Shown: positions 3,822 to 17,820 of the stretch, piece after piece
Position numbering within the stretch: the first letter of the stretch is position 1
How the letters are laid out: each line of letters starts with the position of its first letter
Source: a virus
Taxonomy: Duplodnaviria > Heunggongvirae > Uroviricota > Caudoviricetes
Virus record (IMG/VR): IMGVR_UViG_2734482538_000012
DNA length: 49,248 nt
Direction: 5' to 3' (one strand)
Notes under the pieces: model-generated
Database searches by the model: none
Told to the model about the DNA's origin: nothing
The model's input: the letters and a program-made list of their open reading frames with translations, nothing else
Translations under genes and position numbers: made by a program

Positions 3822-4628
3822 TCAGAACTTATAACCGACACCCACGATGAAACCGTCAGTGCGCCAGTCGCCACTGCCGGAGCCTTCATAAGCAATATCA
3901 ATGGCCACGGATTCGGTCGGGTTAAACTGCACGCCAGCTCCCCACGCCAGAGACGTGTTGCTGTGGCGACCGTCATCACTTCCGGTCAGCACATCGTNNN
4001 NNNNNNNNNNNNNNNNNNNNNNNNNNNNNNNNNNNNNNNNNNNNNNNNNNNNNNNNNNNNNNNNNNNNNNNNNNNNNNNNNNNNNNNNNNNNNNNNNNNN
4101 NNNNNNNNNNNNNNNNNNNNNNNNNNNNNNNNNNNNNNNNNNNNNNNNNNNNNNNNNNNNNNNNNNNNNNNNNNNNNNNNNNNNNNNNNNNNNNNNNNNN
4201 NNNNNNNNNNNNNNNNNNNNNNNNNNNNNNNNNNNNNAATCCCCGGAAAAAGTCGACACACGGCTGTAAGCCACACCCGCCATCGCATACGCGCTGAACC
4301 ATTCATTCACGCGCACAGACGGCCCCGCCATCACGCTGAACCAGCGGTTACGCACGGAATCTTCATGCCAGCGGGTATCGCTGTAACGGGTCAGCTGGCG
4401 ATTCTTGTCTCCTGCATAGCTGAATGACGTCACCAGCCCCAGCGTATCCGTAAACTCATAACGGTATTTCACGTTAATCCCGTTCAGATCATCACTGCCG
4501 GGAACGTTGGTCCGGGCATGAAGATACCCCGCGCTCAGCGTGGACTGATGTTCAGACGCCCATGCAGGCGCACCGGATACGGCCAGGCAAATGGCTGCGG
4601 ACAAAATGGCTGCACAAACTTTACGCAT
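3822..4628 (-). CDS. lom: Outer-membrane protein Lom (Ail/Lom family), interrupted by an assembly gap
   Basis: N-terminus MRKVCAAILSAAICLAVSGAPAWASEHQSTLSAGY and C-terminus ...DGFIVGVGYKF match my recollection of lambda Lom; a 240-nt N-run replaces a short internal segment. Confidence 0.8.
   Translation of the reverse strand: MRKVCAAILSAAICLAVSGAPAWASEHQSTLSAGYLHARTNVPGSDDLNGINVKYRYEFTDTLGLVTSFSYAGDKNRQLTRYSDTRWHEDSVRNRWFSVMAGPSVRVNEWFSAYAMAGVAYSRVSTFSGDXXXXXXXXXXXXXXXXXXXXXXXXXXXXXXXXXXXXXXXXXXXXXXXXXXXXXXXXXXXXXXXXXXXXXXXXXXXXXXXXXDVLTGSDDGRHSNTSLAWGAGVQFNPTESVAIDIAYEGSGSGDWRTDGFIVGVGYKF
3998..4237. other. Assembly gap (240 N) inside lom
   Basis: Run of N characters in the sequence. Confidence 0.99.
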
Positions 4629-4698: not shown

Positions 4699-7600
4699 TC
4701 AACGAATACTGATGCCGGAAGCCGCTTTTTTGGTCACAATCACCGTACAGTCGGTGATATTGCCTGCCCCCTGATTGCCTTTCTGGAAAATCTTAAACTC
4801 CAGAGTGACGCTACCACCACCACTAGGCATATCAATAACTGCACTGTAACTACCGGGAATGGCACCTTTAGTTTCTCTGGATGCGATTAATACGCCGTTT
4901 TTGCGAACTTCAAAACCATAACCCGTGTATCGCGTGCCTCCCGGGTTATTTCCGCTCCCCGGATCGTCATACGCTATACCGTTAAAAATAATGGGCGGAA
5001 TAATAATCTGGCGGTCAAAGTTATGATCATCGCTGATGGTGACTGTAACCGTACCGTCTGGTGTTTCCGTGTTACCCCACGTACCGACTTTTTTCGGGAA
5101 GGCTTTTGATACAGCTTTAACGAAATCCCCTCTGACCTGGGTCGCCTCCAGCATGCCCTTAATCGTACAGTTCTGGTTAATCGTGACATTGTTGAGCGTT
5201 CCTGAGTTCGCATTCACACTACCACTGATATCCGCATTTTTAGCGGTCAGCTTTCCGTCTGATGTCAGGGAAAATACCGGAGGACTGCCACCGCTGGTAA
5301 TGGCGGGGGCTGTCAGGCGCTTCAGGAACACGTCGTTCATGAATATCTGGTTGCCCTGCGCCACAAACATCGGCGTTTCATTCCCGTTTGCCGGGTCAAT
5401 AAACGCGATACGATTGGCGGCAACCAGAAACTGGCTCAGCTTGCCTTCCTCCGTGTCCTCCATGCTGAGGCCAATACCCGCGACATAATGTTTGCCGTCT
5501 TTGGTCTGCTCAATTTTGACGCCCCACATCGCATTCCATTTATCGTTAGCGTCCTTCCACTCTTTCGAAAACTCATCCAGTCTGCTGGCGTTATCCTCCG
5601 TCAGATCAACTTTTTCCAGCAGCTCTTTACCGAGATGGGATTCGGTTATCTTGCCTTTGAAAAAATCCAGGTAACCTTCCGCATCATCGCTCGCCCGACC
5701 GACGGCCTCCACGAATGCCGATTTGCCAACGGTGTTCACACTGCGGATATAAAAGTAATAATCATGGCCCGGTTTGATATTGATACTGGCGGCTATCCAG
5801 TACAGCCCCGCGCCAAGGTAGCGGGCTGTGGTTTCAACCTGCCTGATATCGGTAATCCGCGTTTCCGAGAACCAGAACTCAAACTGTACCGTCGGATCAT
5901 AAACCGCAAGATGCGGCGTGGCAGTTATCTGAAAATAGCCCGGCGTCAGCTCAATCCGCGACGGTGCTACCGGTGCGGCAATCCTGAACGATACCGACGC
6001 CGGATCGCCCTGCTGTCCCCAGGCATTTACCGCCCGGACTGTCAGCGTGTACCGTCCCAGCGCCAGTTGCGTGAAGCGGTATGTGGTTTCCGTCGTCCGG
6101 GCCGTGCTGACCNNNNNNNNNNNNNNNNNNNNNNNNNNNNNNNNNNNNNNNNNNNNNNNNNNNNNNNNNNNNNNNNNNNNNNNNNNNNNNNNNNNNNNNN
6201 NNNNNNNNNNNNNNNNNNNNNNNNNNNNNNNNNNNNNNNNNNNNNNNNNNNNNNNNNNNNNNNNNNNNNNNNNNNNNNNNNNNNNNNNNNNNNNNNNNNN
6301 NNNNNNNNNNNNNNNNNNNNNNNNNNNNNNNNNNNNNNNNNNNNNNNNNNNNNNNNNNNNNNNNNNNNNNNNNNNNNNNNNNNNNNNNNNNNNNNNNNNN
6401 NNNNNNNNNNNNNNNNNNNNNNNNNNNNNNGCCGTCAGGAACACGGCTCACTTTCACCTTCACGCCGTCGGTGACGGACTGAACCTCCACGCTGACCGGA
6501 TTGCCACTTCCGTCAACCAGGCTTATCAGCATGGTACCGGAGGATGGCAGCGTGATTTCACGGTCGAGCGTCAGCGTCCGGGTCTGGCTGTTTACCGCCA
6601 GCACGCGCCCGCCGATGCTGATACCCGCATAGTCATCATCACAGATTTCAATGACATCGCCCGGCACATGGCGAAGCCCTTCTGCGCCCACGCTGAAGTC
6701 CACGGTCTGCGTTTCCAGCAGTTCTGTTTTAATCAGCCACAGCCCGGCGCGGTGTGCCTGCCCCCGGCTGGTACAGCCAAAAGCATCCATCTTCGTGACG
6801 TTACGACCGTAACGGGCAATGGCCTGCGTATCCTCCACAAGCTCTGTCGCCGTCTCCCAGCCGTTATCCGGGTCAATCCAGTTCACCTCAACGGCATTAT
6901 GGCGGTCTTTCAGGGCGCTGAAGCTGTAGCGGAACGGCGCGCCATCATCCGGCATCACCACATTACTGCGGTTATAGGTCCACACCTTATCCGACGGTCG
7001 GTCCTGCACGAACGTCAGCGTCTGCCCGTTCCATACCGGCATACAGCGCATCGCCGAGCAGAAATCACTGAGCACATCCCACGCCTTGCGCTGTGTGGTC
7101 AGGTACGCATTACAGGTGATGCGCGGCTCCGTGCCGCCAAAGCCGTCCGGCACTGACTGGTCGCAGTACTGGCCGATGACATACAGCGCCCATTTGTCCA
7201 CATCCGCCGCACCAAGACGTTTCCCCATGCCGTAGCGCGGGTGGGTCAGCATATCCCACAGACACCAGGCCATGTTGTTGCTGTATGCTGGTTTTAACGT
7301 TCCGTCCCAGATACCGCTGTATTGTCGCGTCTGCGGGTTATAGTTCGACGGCACCTGCAGAATGCGCCCGCGAAGATGATAATTACGANNNNNNNNNNNN
7401 NNNNNNNNNNNNNNNNNNNNNNNNNNNNNNNNNNNNNNNNNNNNNNNNNNNNNNNNNNNNNNNNNNNNNNNNNNNNNNNNNNNNNNNNNNNNNNNNNNNN
7501 NNNNNNNNNNNNNNNNNNNNNNNNNNNNNNNNNNNNNNNNNNNNNNNNNNNNNNNNNNNNNNNNNNNNNNNNNNNNNNNNNNNNNNNNNNNNNNNNNNNN

Positions 7601-8682
7601 NNNNNNNNNNNNNNNNNNNNNNNNNNNNNNNNNNNNNNACAGCGCATCGCCGAGCAGAAATCACTGAGCACATCCCACGCCTTGCGCTGTGTGGTCAGCC
7701 AGGCATTACAGGTGATGCGCGGCTCCGTGCTGCCAAAGCCGTCCGGCACCGACTGGTCACAGTACTGGCCGATGACATACAGCGCCCATTTATCCACATC
7801 TGCCGCACCAAGACGTTTCCCCATGCCATAGCGCGGATGGGTCAGCATATCCCACAGACACCAGGCCATGTTGTTGCTGTATGCCGGTTTTAACGTTCCG
7901 TCCCAGATACCGCTGTATTGCCGCGTCTGCGGATTATAGTTCGACGGCACCTGCAGAATGCGCCCGCGAAGATGATAATTACGGCTCACCTGCTGGCTGC
8001 CGAACTGCTCCGAATCCACCTGTACGCCGACCAGTGCCGTGTTCGGGTAGCACTGTTTCACATCGATGATTTCGGTGTATGACGACCAGAGCGTTTTGTT
8101 CTGCAGCTGGTCTGTGGTGCTGTCCGGTGTCATCCTGCGCATCCGGATACTGAACGGGCGCGGAGGCAGGTTATCCACCACCACCGAGACCAGATACTGC
8201 GAGGTGGTTTTGCCCTTAATGGTGATGTCTTTTTCCGTCACCCAGCCACCGTTACGCTGTATCTGAACCAGCAGGCGAACTTCAGACGGATTCCTGTCTC
8301 CCTTTGAGGTGGTTTCCACCAGTGCCTGTACACCGAAGGTAAAACGCAGTCGGTCAATGTTTGCCGACGTGATGGTCCGGGTGATCGGCGTGTCATATTT
8401 CACTTCCGTACCCAGCACCGTCTCGGAGCCGGAGGATTCAAACCCCTCCGGCGGTGACTGCTCCTGCTCACCTGCCCGGAACACCACCGTGACGCCGGAG
8501 ATGTTGGTATTCCCCTCATTGTCCAGCACCGGCGTACTGTTCAGCAGCACGCTTTTTAATCCATCCACCGGACCTTCAACCGGCCCTTCACTGATGGCAT
8601 CGATCACACTCAGCAGCTGCGTGGACTTCAGGTTGTCCTTCGCTTCGCGCGGGGTATGCCCCTTACTGCTGCCTTTACCCAT
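4699..8682 (-). CDS. J: Tail tip / host specificity protein J, fragmented by two N-gaps and a duplicated flank
   Basis: Three track ORFs (7294-8682, 5951-7354, 4699-6444) are collinear pieces of one J-like protein; N-terminus [41 protein letters not shown] matches lambda J as I recall it; the C-terminal part lies upstream of lom as in lambda. Confidence 0.8.
6113..6430. other. Assembly gap (318 N) inside J
   Basis: Run of N characters. Confidence 0.99.
7043..7983. repeat. About 345 bp of J sequence present on both sides of the 7388-7638 gap as non-identical copies
   Basis: Sequence from acagcgcatcgccgagcagaaatcactgagc to gatgataattacg occurs at about 7043-7387 and again at 7639-7983 with roughly a dozen substitutions; both encode [32 protein letters not shown]... 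Confidence 0.85.
7388..7638. other. Assembly gap (about 251 N) inside J
   Basis: Run of N characters. Confidence 0.99.
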
Positions 8683-9390: not shown

Positions 9391-10031
9391 TTGTCGGTAT
9401 ACCTCTCTCGTTTGCTCAGTTGTTCAGGAATATGGTGCAGCAGCTCGCCGTCACCACAGTAAATGGCGGCATGATTCGGCACCGATGAACCAAAACAGCA
9501 CAGCAGCACATCGCCCGGCTGCGCCGTTGACAACGGCACCTGATACAGCCCTGTAGCCTCCAGATTATCCAGATAGAGATTCTGACCATTACGCCACCAG
9601 TCGTCCTCACGATGAAAATCTGGCATCTCAATTCCCGCCAGATGGTAAGCGTCCCGGAACAGCGTGTAACAGTCCGTCACCCCGTGCTCAAAGCGCCGCC
9701 CGGTGAGATGCGGCACACAGCGGAACTTGTGAATCGCCCCGCGGCAGACCAGCCACCACGACAAATCACTCTGCACCTGCAGCCGCCGGTCGGCCTCACT
9801 CAGCCAGGGCAGACCACCGGGGTGGCTGTGGACCAGCGCCACAATCTCACCCTGCATCTCTGCCTGCAGCCAGTCCTCCGGAGCCATCCGGAAATACTCC
9901 TCCGGCTCACCGGAAATATTCACGCAGGGAAAATATCTTTCCCCCTCCGGTGTTCTCACCACGAAGCCGCACGACTCCGCTGGCGCACATCGCCGGGCGT
10001 GCGCCAGAATCGCTGATTCTGTCTGTGTCAT
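9288..10031 (-). CDS. K: Tail assembly protein K (MPN/JAMM plus NlpC/P60 domains)
   Basis: 247 aa; JAMM-like HSHPGG motif; Cys/His pattern typical of NlpC/P60 (GVTDCYTLFRDAYHLAG); gene order K-I. Confidence 0.85.
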   Translation of the reverse strand: MTQTESAILAHARRCAPAESCGFVVRTPEGERYFPCVNISGEPEEYFRMAPEDWLQAEMQGEIVALVHSHPGGLPWLSEADRRLQVQSDLSWWLVCRGAIHKFRCVPHLTGRRFEHGVTDCYTLFRDAYHLAGIEMPDFHREDDWWRNGQNLYLDNLEATGLYQVPLSTAQPGDVLLCCFGSSVPNHAAIYCGDGELLHHIPEQLSKRERYTDKWQRRTHSLWRHRAWHASAFTGICSDLAAASTFV

Positions 10032-14299: not shown

Positions 14300-14464
14300 T
14301 TATTAAAACTCCTGACAACAAAAAACCCACCGCGAAGTGGGTTTCAGGCGACATAATAGTAGATATAGCGATTACGAGGCCACGCAATGCTTTTCTCCAG
14401 GAGCATCATCGATTTAATTAAAGACACCATCACATCTCTGTAACAGAGTGTACGTAATTAACAA

Positions 14465-15234
14465 CTACACACACTGCTCCTGAAAATACTGGTCATCCAG
14501 TGCAAAGATCACTGCTTCAAATTCATCGCGCTCAATCAATACCGGATGAGTGGCTAAATATTCATTTATCTCTGTCAGAGATAAAGGCAAAGGCACCCCA
14601 GCCATTCCAGCATAACGTCGGGCACGGGATATTACCGAATAGGCGTACAACAACTCCTTAAGCACCGGGTCTATTTCTGGTTCCGGTATCGGTGGCAACC
14701 TGAGTTTTTCTCGCTTCCATCTTGCCTTTTCCCCCCTTTCTCCCCCGAACTCCGATAACCACCGCTGGGCAGCTATGGCTTTTTTATCGTATCCTGCTTC
14801 TGCTGCTCTTTACCCTGGGCGATGCTGGCTGCTTCTGCAAGGATCTGCCAGTACAACTCTGGATTCTGCTTAAGCAGCGCGATCCCTCGTTCTGCCGTAT
14901 ATTCCAGTGCAACCTCAACACCATTAACCAGTTCACCAACCCCTTTCCAGTCTTTCAGCAGATAACGAGCGGCATTATCAATGAGTAAATCATCAACAGA
15001 ATCCACCTCGGAAACCTTTGAAATATCAAACTCCTTCGTTCCGACGTGCAAACTGGCATCCATTTTCTCAATGTGGCGACGGATTAATGCATTACGGGAG
15101 CGATACTGATCGTTATCGCTGCTTGCCACCAACAGTTTTAACCCGTCTACAGGTTTTAAGTCCTTCATTGGCGTAAACCAGCGTTCTCCACCAATGATAA
15201 TTTTCTGATTAAGAATAAACATCCATAACCTCAT
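14465..15234 (-). CDS. T: Tail assembly chaperone GT, made by -1 programmed frameshift
   Basis: Hand translation in the -1 frame from the slippery site at the 3' end of G (KKAIAAQRWLSEFGGERGEKARWKREKLRLPPIPEPEIDPVLKELLYAY...) runs into track ORF 14465-14698. Confidence 0.7.
14773..15234 (-). CDS. G: Tail assembly chaperone G
   Basis: 153 aa ORF between the major tail gene and the tape measure gene; ends ...QDTIKKP; Shine-Dalgarno (aggggga) upstream of the first ATG. Confidence 0.75.
   Translation of the reverse strand: MRLWMFILNQKIIIGGERWFTPMKDLKPVDGLKLLVASSDNDQYRSRNALIRRHIEKMDASLHVGTKEFDISKVSEVDSVDDLLIDNAARYLLKDWKGVGELVNGVEVALEYTAERGIALLKQNPELYWQILAEAASIAQGKEQQKQDTIKKP
14779..14785 (-). 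other. Slippery heptamer A AAA AAG (recoding site for the G to GT frameshift)
   Basis: Minus-strand sequence gat acg ata aaa aag cca tag: the X XXY YYZ heptamer lies in the zero frame three codons before the G stop codon. Confidence 0.7.
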
Positions 15235-15282: not shown

Positions 15283-16245
15283 TCAACTAATCGCCTCAGC
15301 ACTGGCTTTTGCGATCACGGCAGCCGGGGAATTTTTTTTTCTGGTTATCGTAGGTGCTTCATCTGCTGCGGTAATGCTCAATTGAACCTGGATAATGTCG
15401 CTATTACCCCCATCAGGCCATTCACCTGACACCTGAACCTTCGGGAAACTGAAAGTGTATGCCCCCTCTCCATTCGAAAGCGTGAAGCTGAACGGAACTG
15501 TTTCTCCAGTCAGTGTTTTACTCCAGATTTCCCACGCGGCTTTAGACCATGAAAGCGTCACCGTACCGGACGGTGTAAAAGTAGTCGGAATATTTGCTCC
15601 TGCATAAGGCGAGCCAGTCCCGATACAACGCTGTGTCTGGAGTTTGTTATCGAACTGAATATCAAAACTGTCGATACAAAAACCGTTACCTCCGGCAACA
15701 CCATTCAGGCTTACTGCTGAAACCTCCTTAAACGAATAACGTAGCTTTCCTGCACTATCCACAGGTTCGCCTTTGATAAAATTCGTATCATCGGCCTTTG
15801 ATTCCCAGTCCAGTCCGGCAAAGGTTACGGTCGCTGTAATATCGCCGTCGTTAGGGATCTGCATTTTCCATGAGCCAACCTGCGCTCCTCTGACGACAGA
15901 GGCAATTCCGACATCGGACGCATAGGTCGCCAGAGAAAATGTTATTCGCTCATTCCCCATTGTCAGAGAATCGCCTGACCATTCCGCGCCGAAACAGGAT
16001 GCAAGAAAATCATCATGTTGACCCCAGCGAAATTTGGTACCAACATCACCGCCGACATCCACAGTGCCAGGCGTCGCCCCCTGAGCCATCCGGGAGCCAC
16101 CAATCTCATTATTTTCGCCTTTATTCTGGGTGGGTTTTACTCCCCAGCTTGTGCGTTTTAATAAACTCCAGTCACCACTTGCTGGCGTAGTGCCTGCAAC
16201 CGTCTCCCGGATAAATGCCGAGATAACCTTTGCACCTGAACTCAC
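15283..16245 (-). CDS. Major tail (tube) protein
   Basis: 320 aa, Gly/Ser/Thr-rich and beta-rich; occupies the gpV position upstream of G/GT. The sequence is not lambda-V-like, so the call is by position and composition. Confidence 0.65.
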   Translation of the reverse strand: MSSGAKVISAFIRETVAGTTPASGDWSLLKRTSWGVKPTQNKGENNEIGGSRMAQGATPGTVDVGGDVGTKFRWGQHDDFLASCFGAEWSGDSLTMGNERITFSLATYASDVGIASVVRGAQVGSWKMQIPNDGDITATVTFAGLDWESKADDTNFIKGEPVDSAGKLRYSFKEVSAVSLNGVAGGNGFCIDSFDIQFDNKLQTQRCIGTGSPYAGANIPTTFTPSGTVTLSWSKAAWEIWSKTLTGETVPFSFTLSNGEGAYTFSFPKVQVSGEWPDGGNSDIIQVQLSITAADEAPTITRKKNSPAAVIAKASAEAIS

Positions 16246-17041: not shown

Positions 17042-17425
17042 TTACGCTCTCCTTAACTGGATAGAGTAAACTGATGCGGAAGGATCTACACTTGCTGTAA
17101 TTACCTCGTATCGTTGTAACTGCCTTGATACAGGATCATAAATCTCAATAATATGGTCGACAGCTGGTTTATCCGTAACCTCGCATACCAGAGCGGTTAA
17201 TTTAAGGTCACCATGCAAAATATTAATCCCATCAATTCTGCCCAGCTTATAACGTGTCAACACGCCTCGCCCGGTATAGATTGCGGTGGATTCGCCGCCA
17301 GTTTCCGTCACAGGATCCCAGTGCCGGTGCGTAACGTAAGAACCAGAAAAATCACTCACGGCGTCCGCTAAATCCTCATCAAAAGCAGCGGCAACCTCTG
17401 ACTGAATCTCTTCACGAAGCCCCAT
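17042..17425 (-). CDS. Head-tail connector / head completion protein (by position)
   Basis: 127 aa ORF abutting flanking genes between the capsid gene and the tail genes. Confidence 0.45.
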   Translation of the reverse strand: MGLREEIQSEVAAAFDEDLADAVSDFSGSYVTHRHWDPVTETGGESTAIYTGRGVLTRYKLGRIDGINILHGDLKLTALVCEVTDKPAVDHIIEIYDPVSRQLQRYEVITASVDPSASVYSIQLRRA

Positions 17426-17820
17426 TATCCCCCCCTCACAACCCTGACTTGTGAGCGACTAAGTCCGTACGGTTTCAGCAGTGCTATCGCAAGCTGTAAA
17501 TCGGGTTCAAGCAATGCAGTGCTGTTTGCTGGCAACTCAGAAAATGATTTCGATACACTGACCCCGTCAGCCGACACGGCTTTACTGATAACAACGCCAG
17601 AATCATTTTTCTGCTGAAACAACTTACCGAATGAGGCAATTCTGGCTGCATATGCTCCCGCAAGTTTTACCTCTTCCGGAATACGGGATGGGTTAATTTT
17701 CAGGTTGAAGCCATTAAGCCAGGCATTAGCCATTAAAACAGCTTTATTTTTAGCGTTCTCACTCGTCCAGGCGTTCCCAAACGCATTATCAACGTCATCA
17801 CAGGTCACGTAAGTGATCAT
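17425..17820 (-). CDS. Head-tail adaptor / DNA packaging protein (by position)
   Basis: 131 aa ORF; ATG at 17820; located just after the capsid gene. Confidence 0.45.
   Translation of the reverse strand: MITYVTCDDVDNAFGNAWTSENAKNKAVLMANAWLNGFNLKINPSRIPEEVKLAGAYAARIASFGKLFQQKNDSGVVISKAVSADGVSVSKSFSELPANSTALLEPDLQLAIALLKPYGLSRSQVRVVRGG

Follow-up and report, generated by a model that had tools for sequence, protein, structure and literature searches.

The question raised by this locus is how two overlapping open reading frames (ORFs), flanked by the tail tube and tape measure genes of a phage, are decoded. The locus lies on the minus strand of a 49,248-nucleotide stretch of DNA, the IMG/VR virus record IMGVR_UViG_2734482538_000012 (Caudoviricetes), which is referred to in its full length as the window, and it is part of a Rac-like lambdoid Escherichia coli prophage. 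The upstream ORF encodes a tail assembly chaperone, here termed G; the downstream ORF, T, is usually called as a 77-residue reading frame of its own. In an earlier note, prepared from the DNA letters alone, it was proposed that a slippery site near the end of G joins the two in the conserved G/GT arrangement of long-tailed phages. A G/GT-type programmed -1 frameshift in this chaperone gene is considered highly probable, the slippage itself being a prediction.

On the minus strand, the last zero-frame codons of G are CAG GAT ACG ATA AAA AAG CCA TAG. They contain the heptamer A AAA AAG (14785..14779), whose first A is the third base of a codon, as the X XXY YYZ phase of tandem -1 slippage requires; a single sense codon (CCA) separates it from the TAG stop at 14775..14773. 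The -1 frame is open from 37 nucleotides before the G stop down to a stop at 14467..14465, providing 104 codons after the slip, the last 77 of which constitute the TTG-started ORF at 14465..14698. The in-phase heptamer close to the G stop and the stop-free passage of the -1 frame into the 77-residue ORF had both been described in the earlier note and were confirmed. The upstream ORF was likewise present as described, while its start was revised: the ATG at 15234 opens only the longest ORF, and the ATG at 15222, which gives 149 residues, is the more probable start, having GAGG 6 nucleotides upstream and homologues that begin MFILNQ. The predicted GT product is join(15222..14779, 14779..14465) on the minus strand, that is, 148 + 104 = 252 residues. 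It should be noted that AAAAAAG occurs 25 times in the window when both strands are counted, and the motif alone therefore means little. A G/GT-like filter was applied: upstream of the site the zero frame had to be open for 100 codons or more, downstream it had to meet a stop within 40 codons, and the -1 frame had to continue for 60 codons or more. The copy at 14785 was the sole AAAAAAG in the window to pass, and the arrangement around it is both unique in the window and kept in relatives. Other X XXY YYZ sites that passed, at 9938 (+), 18609 (-) and 17434 (-), were dismissed, being either a spurious “zero frame” ORF inside a real gene or a case in which the downstream gene has its own overlapping ATG. 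At the last of these (site 17425-17434), the ORF 17425-17820 (-) closes with G GGG GGA TGA; its -1 frame corresponds to the following gene (17042-17425), which has an ATG of its own overlapping the stop (ATGA), a configuration that suggests ordinary translational coupling rather than recoding.

In the proposed mechanism, most ribosomes would stop at the TAG, yielding the 149-residue G protein. A minority would slip back by one nucleotide with Lys tRNAs on AAA in the P site and on AAG in the A site; the slipped tRNAs would re-pair on AAA AAA, after which the ribosome would read on from GCC ATA GCT GCC CAG for 104 codons and complete the 252-residue GT fusion. On the model of lambda G/GT, the G part may bind the tape measure protein and the T part may recruit the tube protein, and a fixed low GT:G ratio would be needed for correct tail assembly. 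The definition of such a system, said to be that of Xu, Hendrix & Duda 2004, reportedly comprises two ORFs between the tube and tape measure genes, a -1 overlap without a conserved start, a conserved in-phase slippery site, and two proteins that are made at a fixed ratio, needed for assembly and absent from virions. Here, the order of genes on the minus strand is tube, G, T and tape measure, matching the placement of two ORFs between the tube and tape measure genes. Coordinates of the features are collected in Table 1.

Table 1. Features of the chaperone locus and its flanking tail genes, in positions of the window.
Feature	Position	Strand	Remarks
Tail tube (major tail) gene	15283..16245	-	PF18906 Phage_tube_2, E 9e-32; directly upstream of G
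Gene G, tail assembly chaperone, 149 residues	14773..15222	-	RefSeq label “ydaY”; longest ORF from 15234 = 153 residues
Shine-Dalgarno-like AGGA	14792..14795	-	6 nucleotides upstream of heptamer; CAGGA invariant in 40 unique junctions
Slippery heptamer A AAA AAG, in phase	14779..14785	-	one sense codon before G stop
Predicted -1 frame extension (“T” segment), 104 codons + stop	14465..14779	-	open -1 frame; PHROG 1189, E 1.4e-36
Local hairpin abutting heptamer	14752..14778	-	-11.3 kcal/mol, z -2.4; E. coli lineage only
77-residue TTG-started ORF, as usually called	14465..14698	-	3' part of T segment
Tape measure protein gene, 1,077 residues	11066..14299	-	PF06791, PF09718, PF24622; PHROG 24; downstream of T

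The conservation of the junction was analyzed in 80 viral-contig loci whose G proteins are 64-100% identical in amino acid sequence, and which contain 40 unique junction sequences. The in-phase AAAAAAG is kept in 80 of 80 loci, and the T-like high-scoring segment pair lies in the -1 frame relative to the G-like one in 79 of them. The remaining locus (L009) was rejected as an exception to this relation: the heptamer is still present, and the locus only has additional indels in a G-rich run farther downstream. Throughout the unique junctions the heptamer, the T that precedes it and the upstream CAGGA are invariant, while neighbouring wobble positions vary. The position of the G stop differs by lineage, at 0, 1, 7, 25 or 35 codons past the heptamer; since this distance varies while the heptamer stays, it is the heptamer that is conserved, not its closeness to the stop. 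In some Salmonella-type viral contigs (L045-L048, L056) the G stop has been lost and the zero frame continues 25-35 codons past the unchanged heptamer, so that G gains a longer, non-conserved tail rich in Ser, Lys, Arg and Gly. The pattern of substitution also changes at this point. Mean pairwise diversity at the three codon positions is 0.06/0.06/0.42 in the zero frame over the 60 nucleotides upstream and 0.14/0.12/0.46 in the -1 frame over the 113 nucleotides downstream, and sliding blocks place the switch from the zero-frame to the -1 frame pattern at the heptamer. Moreover, the -1 peptide is conserved from its first residue after the slip, K|A[ILV][AE]AQ[KR]W[LI]xEF, and the zero frame past the heptamer stops at varying positions with no conserved peptide.

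These data bear directly on the possibility that T is a gene in its own right, with a 77-residue product initiated at the TTG at 14698, and that the heptamer and the open -1 frame are incidental. A TTG-started ORF of that length does exist, and T, or a shorter version of it, is called as a separate hypothetical protein by the Prokaryotic Genome Annotation Pipeline (PGAP) and by GenBank annotators. However, the TTG of the window is present in just 11 of the 40 unique junctions, and 19 of the 40 have no ATG, GTG or TTG within the first 40 codons of the -1 frame. Because start codons are missing or variable across junctions, independent initiation of T is not a conserved option. Furthermore, purifying selection in the -1 frame starts at the heptamer, 27 codons upstream of the TTG, and no usable Shine-Dalgarno sequence precedes the TTG, which is directly abutted by AGG. 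Very little probability is therefore given to separate translation of T, and the 77-residue ORF is probably not an independent gene.

More distant relatives were located by tblastn with the predicted fusion, through which G and T parts were found in two frames in phages of Klebsiella, Erwinia, Pseudomonas and Acinetobacter, and the -1 relation was present in 6 of the 6 annotated phage loci examined. The codons at the junction differ between these groups. The Klebsiella junction reads GTA AAA AAG CCA TAG, that of Erwinia Gungnir39 reads GTC GCA AAG TAA, with only GCA AAG directly before the stop, and that of Pseudomonas phiPSA1-like phages reads CTG GAA AAG CCA TCG (L005/L006 1887-1897); the Acinetobacter phages TCUAN1 and TRS1 have G GGA AAG as shift site. 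Acinetobacter phage vB_AbaS_TRS1 (TRS1_19) and the phiPSA1-like phages belong to the same protein family as the chaperone studied here, with T parts 39-41% and G parts about 25-32% identical, and they share the -1 relation and a shift codon in the same alignment column; they differ in the shift site itself (G GGA AAG in Acinetobacter, CTG GAA AAG in Pseudomonas) and in the distance to the G stop, which is 19-29 codons after the site as against 1 here. For TRS1, the RefSeq record already contains an annotated joined coding sequence (CDS) for the chaperone. The imperfect heptamer G GAA AAG is common to HK97 (L091 430-445) and to the phiPSA1-like phages, although the chaperones of the two are unrelated in sequence.

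What remains constant among these junctions is the lysine codon. When the predicted fusions of E. coli, Klebsiella, Erwinia, Pseudomonas and Acinetobacter phages were aligned, only 15 columns were invariant, and the shift-site Lys is among them. The C-terminal end of G-like representatives down to about 25% identity carries the motif T-[VA]-x-K (x = K, G, A, E), the Lys of which is nearly invariant, and the zero-frame tails that follow it range from 0 to more than 25 residues and are not conserved. The Lys AAG looks like the essential element of the shift site. A tentative and rather doubtful extension of this view is that the A-site Lys AAG would be the invariant ancestral shift point across the chaperone family, with the P-site codon drifting between AAA, GGA, GAA and GCA; slippage of a single Lys tRNA would then be the core mechanism, and the GT:G ratio would be set by evolutionary “dials”, namely the P-site codon, the AGGA upstream and hairpins specific to certain lineages. 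If this were true, the family would represent a natural allelic series for the contribution of P-site re-pairing to frameshift efficiency in vivo. The claim of a conserved G/GT arrangement is borne out by the gene order, the 80 of 80 heptamers, the frame switch that coincides with the heptamer, the absence of a conserved T start codon, and the like organization of the distant relatives.

The same GT protein could also arise by transcriptional slippage, in which RNA polymerase adds one A within the A-run, and a single added A does yield exactly the GT reading frame. Efficient polymerase slippage generally requires about nine or more A, and the run here has only six. In relatives, the aligned shift codon stands within GCA AAG, GAA AAG or G GGA AAG, whose 3-4 A are unable to support polymerase slippage. 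Such slippage is known in some mobile elements and secretion-system genes (PMC5009743); for the ribosome, in turn, A AAA AAG ranks among the three heptamers most prone to shifting in E. coli (PMC4066793). With only six A and other codons at the same site in relatives, a transcriptional origin of GT is very unlikely. Scarcely credible, and effectively refuted by the comparative data, is a frame break due to mutation, sequencing error or chance, by which a once-continuous G-T gene would have been disrupted as the prophage decayed, or the overlap would be accidental. In its favour, defects are frequent in Rac-type prophages (the K-12 gene is truncated), homopolymer runs are error-prone and rare in-frame fused variants such as the E. 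coli protein P0001 exist. However, the same frame relation is found in at least 1,059 complete E. coli genomes at a coverage of at least 80%, in 80 viral contigs and in distant phages of four other genera, no single-ORF G-T protein was found among 1.84 billion representative proteins, and P0001 goes back to a deletion of its own upstream of the heptamer and does not represent a continuous ancestral gene.

P0001 (E. coli, 240 residues) results from a deletion by which G and the -1 frame became a single ORF; judging from the sequence around the breakpoint, the deletion may lie between two GCAGAAGCAG direct repeats. It would yield GT only and no G, and is probably derived from a defective prophage. 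When the representative proteins were searched exhaustively with P0001, there were 96 matches, each to the G part or to the T part, and 0 that spanned both. P0002, P0004 and P0010 were rejected as natural “fused” proteins, being indel variants from raw assemblies.

Returning to the programmed frameshift, the identity of the two products is consistent with it. G matches PHROG 313 (“tail assembly chaperone”) with E 4e-46. T matches PHROG 1189 with E 1.4e-36 and, in addition, the C-terminal part of PHROG 313 with E 0.0097. The PHROG 313 profile has 258 positions; the match of G spans 13-149, and that of the -1 frame peptide follows, as in the genome, at 173-246. This order fits a profile constructed in part from frameshift-joined proteins. 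No match to G was obtained in local Pfam and NCBIfam libraries, and a sequence search of the PDB with G returned no meaningful relative. For T, the score against PF23812 in Pfam was 20.7 bits, under the cut-off of 27, with no Pfam match above threshold. The AlphaFold model of G, based on 24 homologues, has a predicted local distance difference test score (pLDDT) of 84.5 and a predicted template modelling score (pTM) of 0.75. In a Foldseek comparison, the viral models that match it best are tail or tape-measure chaperones, including several extended forms of 230-270 residues, and the predicted fold matches that of the HK97 tail assembly chaperone (gp13, PDB 2OB9).

Stimulatory elements around the heptamer were then considered. 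A conserved downstream stem-loop or pseudoknot was not found by RNAalifold in 21 junctions (consensus -0.4 kcal/mol, no compensatory pairs), and the 90-nucleotide fold of the window was no better than shuffles (z -0.24). Directly after the heptamer a 27-nucleotide hairpin is predicted, with z -2.4 in the window, and in a sister variant it reaches -14.2 kcal/mol with z -3.9. This hairpin, which has zero spacer where it is present in the E. coli lineage, is absent from Klebsiella and Citrobacter-type junctions; it is possibly a modulator, not a conserved one. On the upstream side, the AGGA at 6 nucleotides satisfies the criteria for a Shine-Dalgarno-like motif and its spacing of Sharma et al. 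2014 (PMC4066793) and may be a weak stimulator. The invariant AGGA also encodes a conserved Gln-Asp/Glu, so that selection at the RNA level and at the protein level are inseparable. The shiftiness of the heptamer rests on the Lys tRNA with UUU anticodon (PMC5009743). As no conserved strong stimulator was found, the efficiency of frameshifting is probably a few per cent, as in lambda.

E. coli dnaX offers a comparison. At dnaX, which produces gamma and tau, a strong stem-loop lies a few nucleotides downstream and a Shine-Dalgarno sequence about 10 nucleotides upstream, about 50% of ribosomes shift, and the shifted product is the shorter one. The present site shares with dnaX the identical A AAA AAG and the same Lys tRNA; the Shine-Dalgarno-like AGGA upstream may be a counterpart of the dnaX element. 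Unlike dnaX, it has no conserved downstream structure at 5-6 nucleotides spacing, the hairpin of the E. coli lineage having no spacer, and the shifted product is longer. The description of the site as dnaX-like therefore holds for the heptamer A AAA AAG and fails for the downstream stem-loop, which has no conserved counterpart.

Among the closest known parallels is the phage lambda G/G-T programmed -1 frameshift, reportedly described by Levin, Hendrix & Casjens 1993 and by Xu, Hendrix & Duda 2004, 2013, 2014, and summarised in PMC5009743. In both systems two overlapping ORFs lie between the major tail and tape measure genes, the downstream ORF is in the -1 frame without a start of its own, the heptamer with its A-site AAG (Lys) is separated from the G stop by a few codons, GT is about double the length of G, and there is no strong conserved RNA stimulator. 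The differences are that lambda uses G GGA AAG six codons before the G stop in place of A AAA AAG, and that G and T here show no sequence similarity to the lambda G or T families in Pfam. Among long-tailed phages, conservation of the G/GT frameshift goes along with little similarity in sequence (PMC5009743).

A second comparison concerns HK97 gp13 and the HK97-like chaperones. These occupy the same gene position, with products of 124-128 and 224-226 residues as against 149 and 252 here, and HK97 itself has the shift site CGG GAA AAG in place of A AAA AAG. Among HK97-like E. coli prophages, A AAA AAG occurs at the chaperone junction, and ECs1801 (cluster A_AAA_AAG_25) is listed as a true frameshift case (Sharma et al. 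2014, PMC4066793). ECs1801, from prophage Sp9 of O157 Sakai, ends AGA AAA AAG TAG, with the identical heptamer at the very end of G, and has products of 124 and 226 residues. Because this heptamer has already been published for those prophages, the presence of A AAA AAG at such a junction is not exceptional. In the matching GeneTack cluster, “phage tail assembly chaperone”, two genes had a measured frameshifting level of about 6-7% (Antonov et al. 2013, PMC3711429). The possibility that ECs1801 is the present gene was rejected, as it is 61% identical to HK97 GT and has no significant BLAST match with the present family. By hhalign, no homology to HK97 GT was detectable (probability 0.2%). Since ECs1801 is this close to HK97 GT and yet unrelated in sequence to the present family, the G/T family is a separate sequence lineage from the HK97-like chaperones, with the same fold, position and recoding signal.

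Several points weigh against a programmed frameshift at this locus. The evidence for slippage at this gene consists of sequence and comparison. The heptamer is common in the window as a bare motif, as the count of its copies demonstrates. The 40 unique junctions are related sequences, not independent samples. There is no conserved stimulatory structure downstream, and the efficiency may accordingly be low. Finally, many of the carriers are prophages that may be defective, and current function in a given host is thus not assured.

Regarding the distribution of the locus, Salmonella phage SPF_0923 is 100% identical to the 1-kb region, several E. coli phage records are 98% identical, and the region is present in 1,074 of 5,426 complete E. 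coli genomes. Within the 165-nucleotide gap between the T stop and the tape measure start, a hairpin resembling an intrinsic terminator, with a 10-bp stem and a T-run, was observed at 14322-14345 (-). The equivalent place in HK97 contains a moron gene and a putative terminator, and in Klebsiella and Pseudomonas relatives extra small genes are located there. Three masked runs of N are present in the distal tail gene region, at 3998-4237, 6113-6430 and 7389-7638, where ORF calls are unreliable.

In current annotation the two reading frames appear as unrelated, as had been stated in the earlier note: the RefSeq and GenBank records list “YdaY” and a hypothetical protein separately. In the records examined, RefSeq names G “protein YdaY” with a call of 119 residues, T is a hypothetical protein or uncalled, and no slippage is annotated. 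A joined CDS for GT was present neither in the closest phage record nor in one RefSeq E. coli genome nor in K-12, and no chaperone fusion was named among the matches listed. The call of 119 residues originates from the deletion-truncated Rac remnant of K-12 (L089, 2974-3333). In this remnant, that of strain MG1655, only the 3' part of G is left, whereas the heptamer and the T region are retained, as is a tape measure gene in truncated form (ynaA). It was also observed that the “YdaY” call has been propagated onto full-length, 149-residue chaperone genes in other E. coli genomes, removing about 30 N-terminal residues. Among the papers covered by the literature search, none reported ydaY frameshifting.

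The event predicted here is a known kind of recoding, that of lambda G/GT, and for most members of this gene family it is missing from annotation. It leaves the understanding of both frameshifting and tail assembly unchanged. Its value is mainly corrective, in that YdaY is chaperone G, GT is absent from annotation, and T is probably not an independent gene. Correcting the annotation would assign a function to two “unknown” ORFs and would add a family to the training sets of frameshift predictors.
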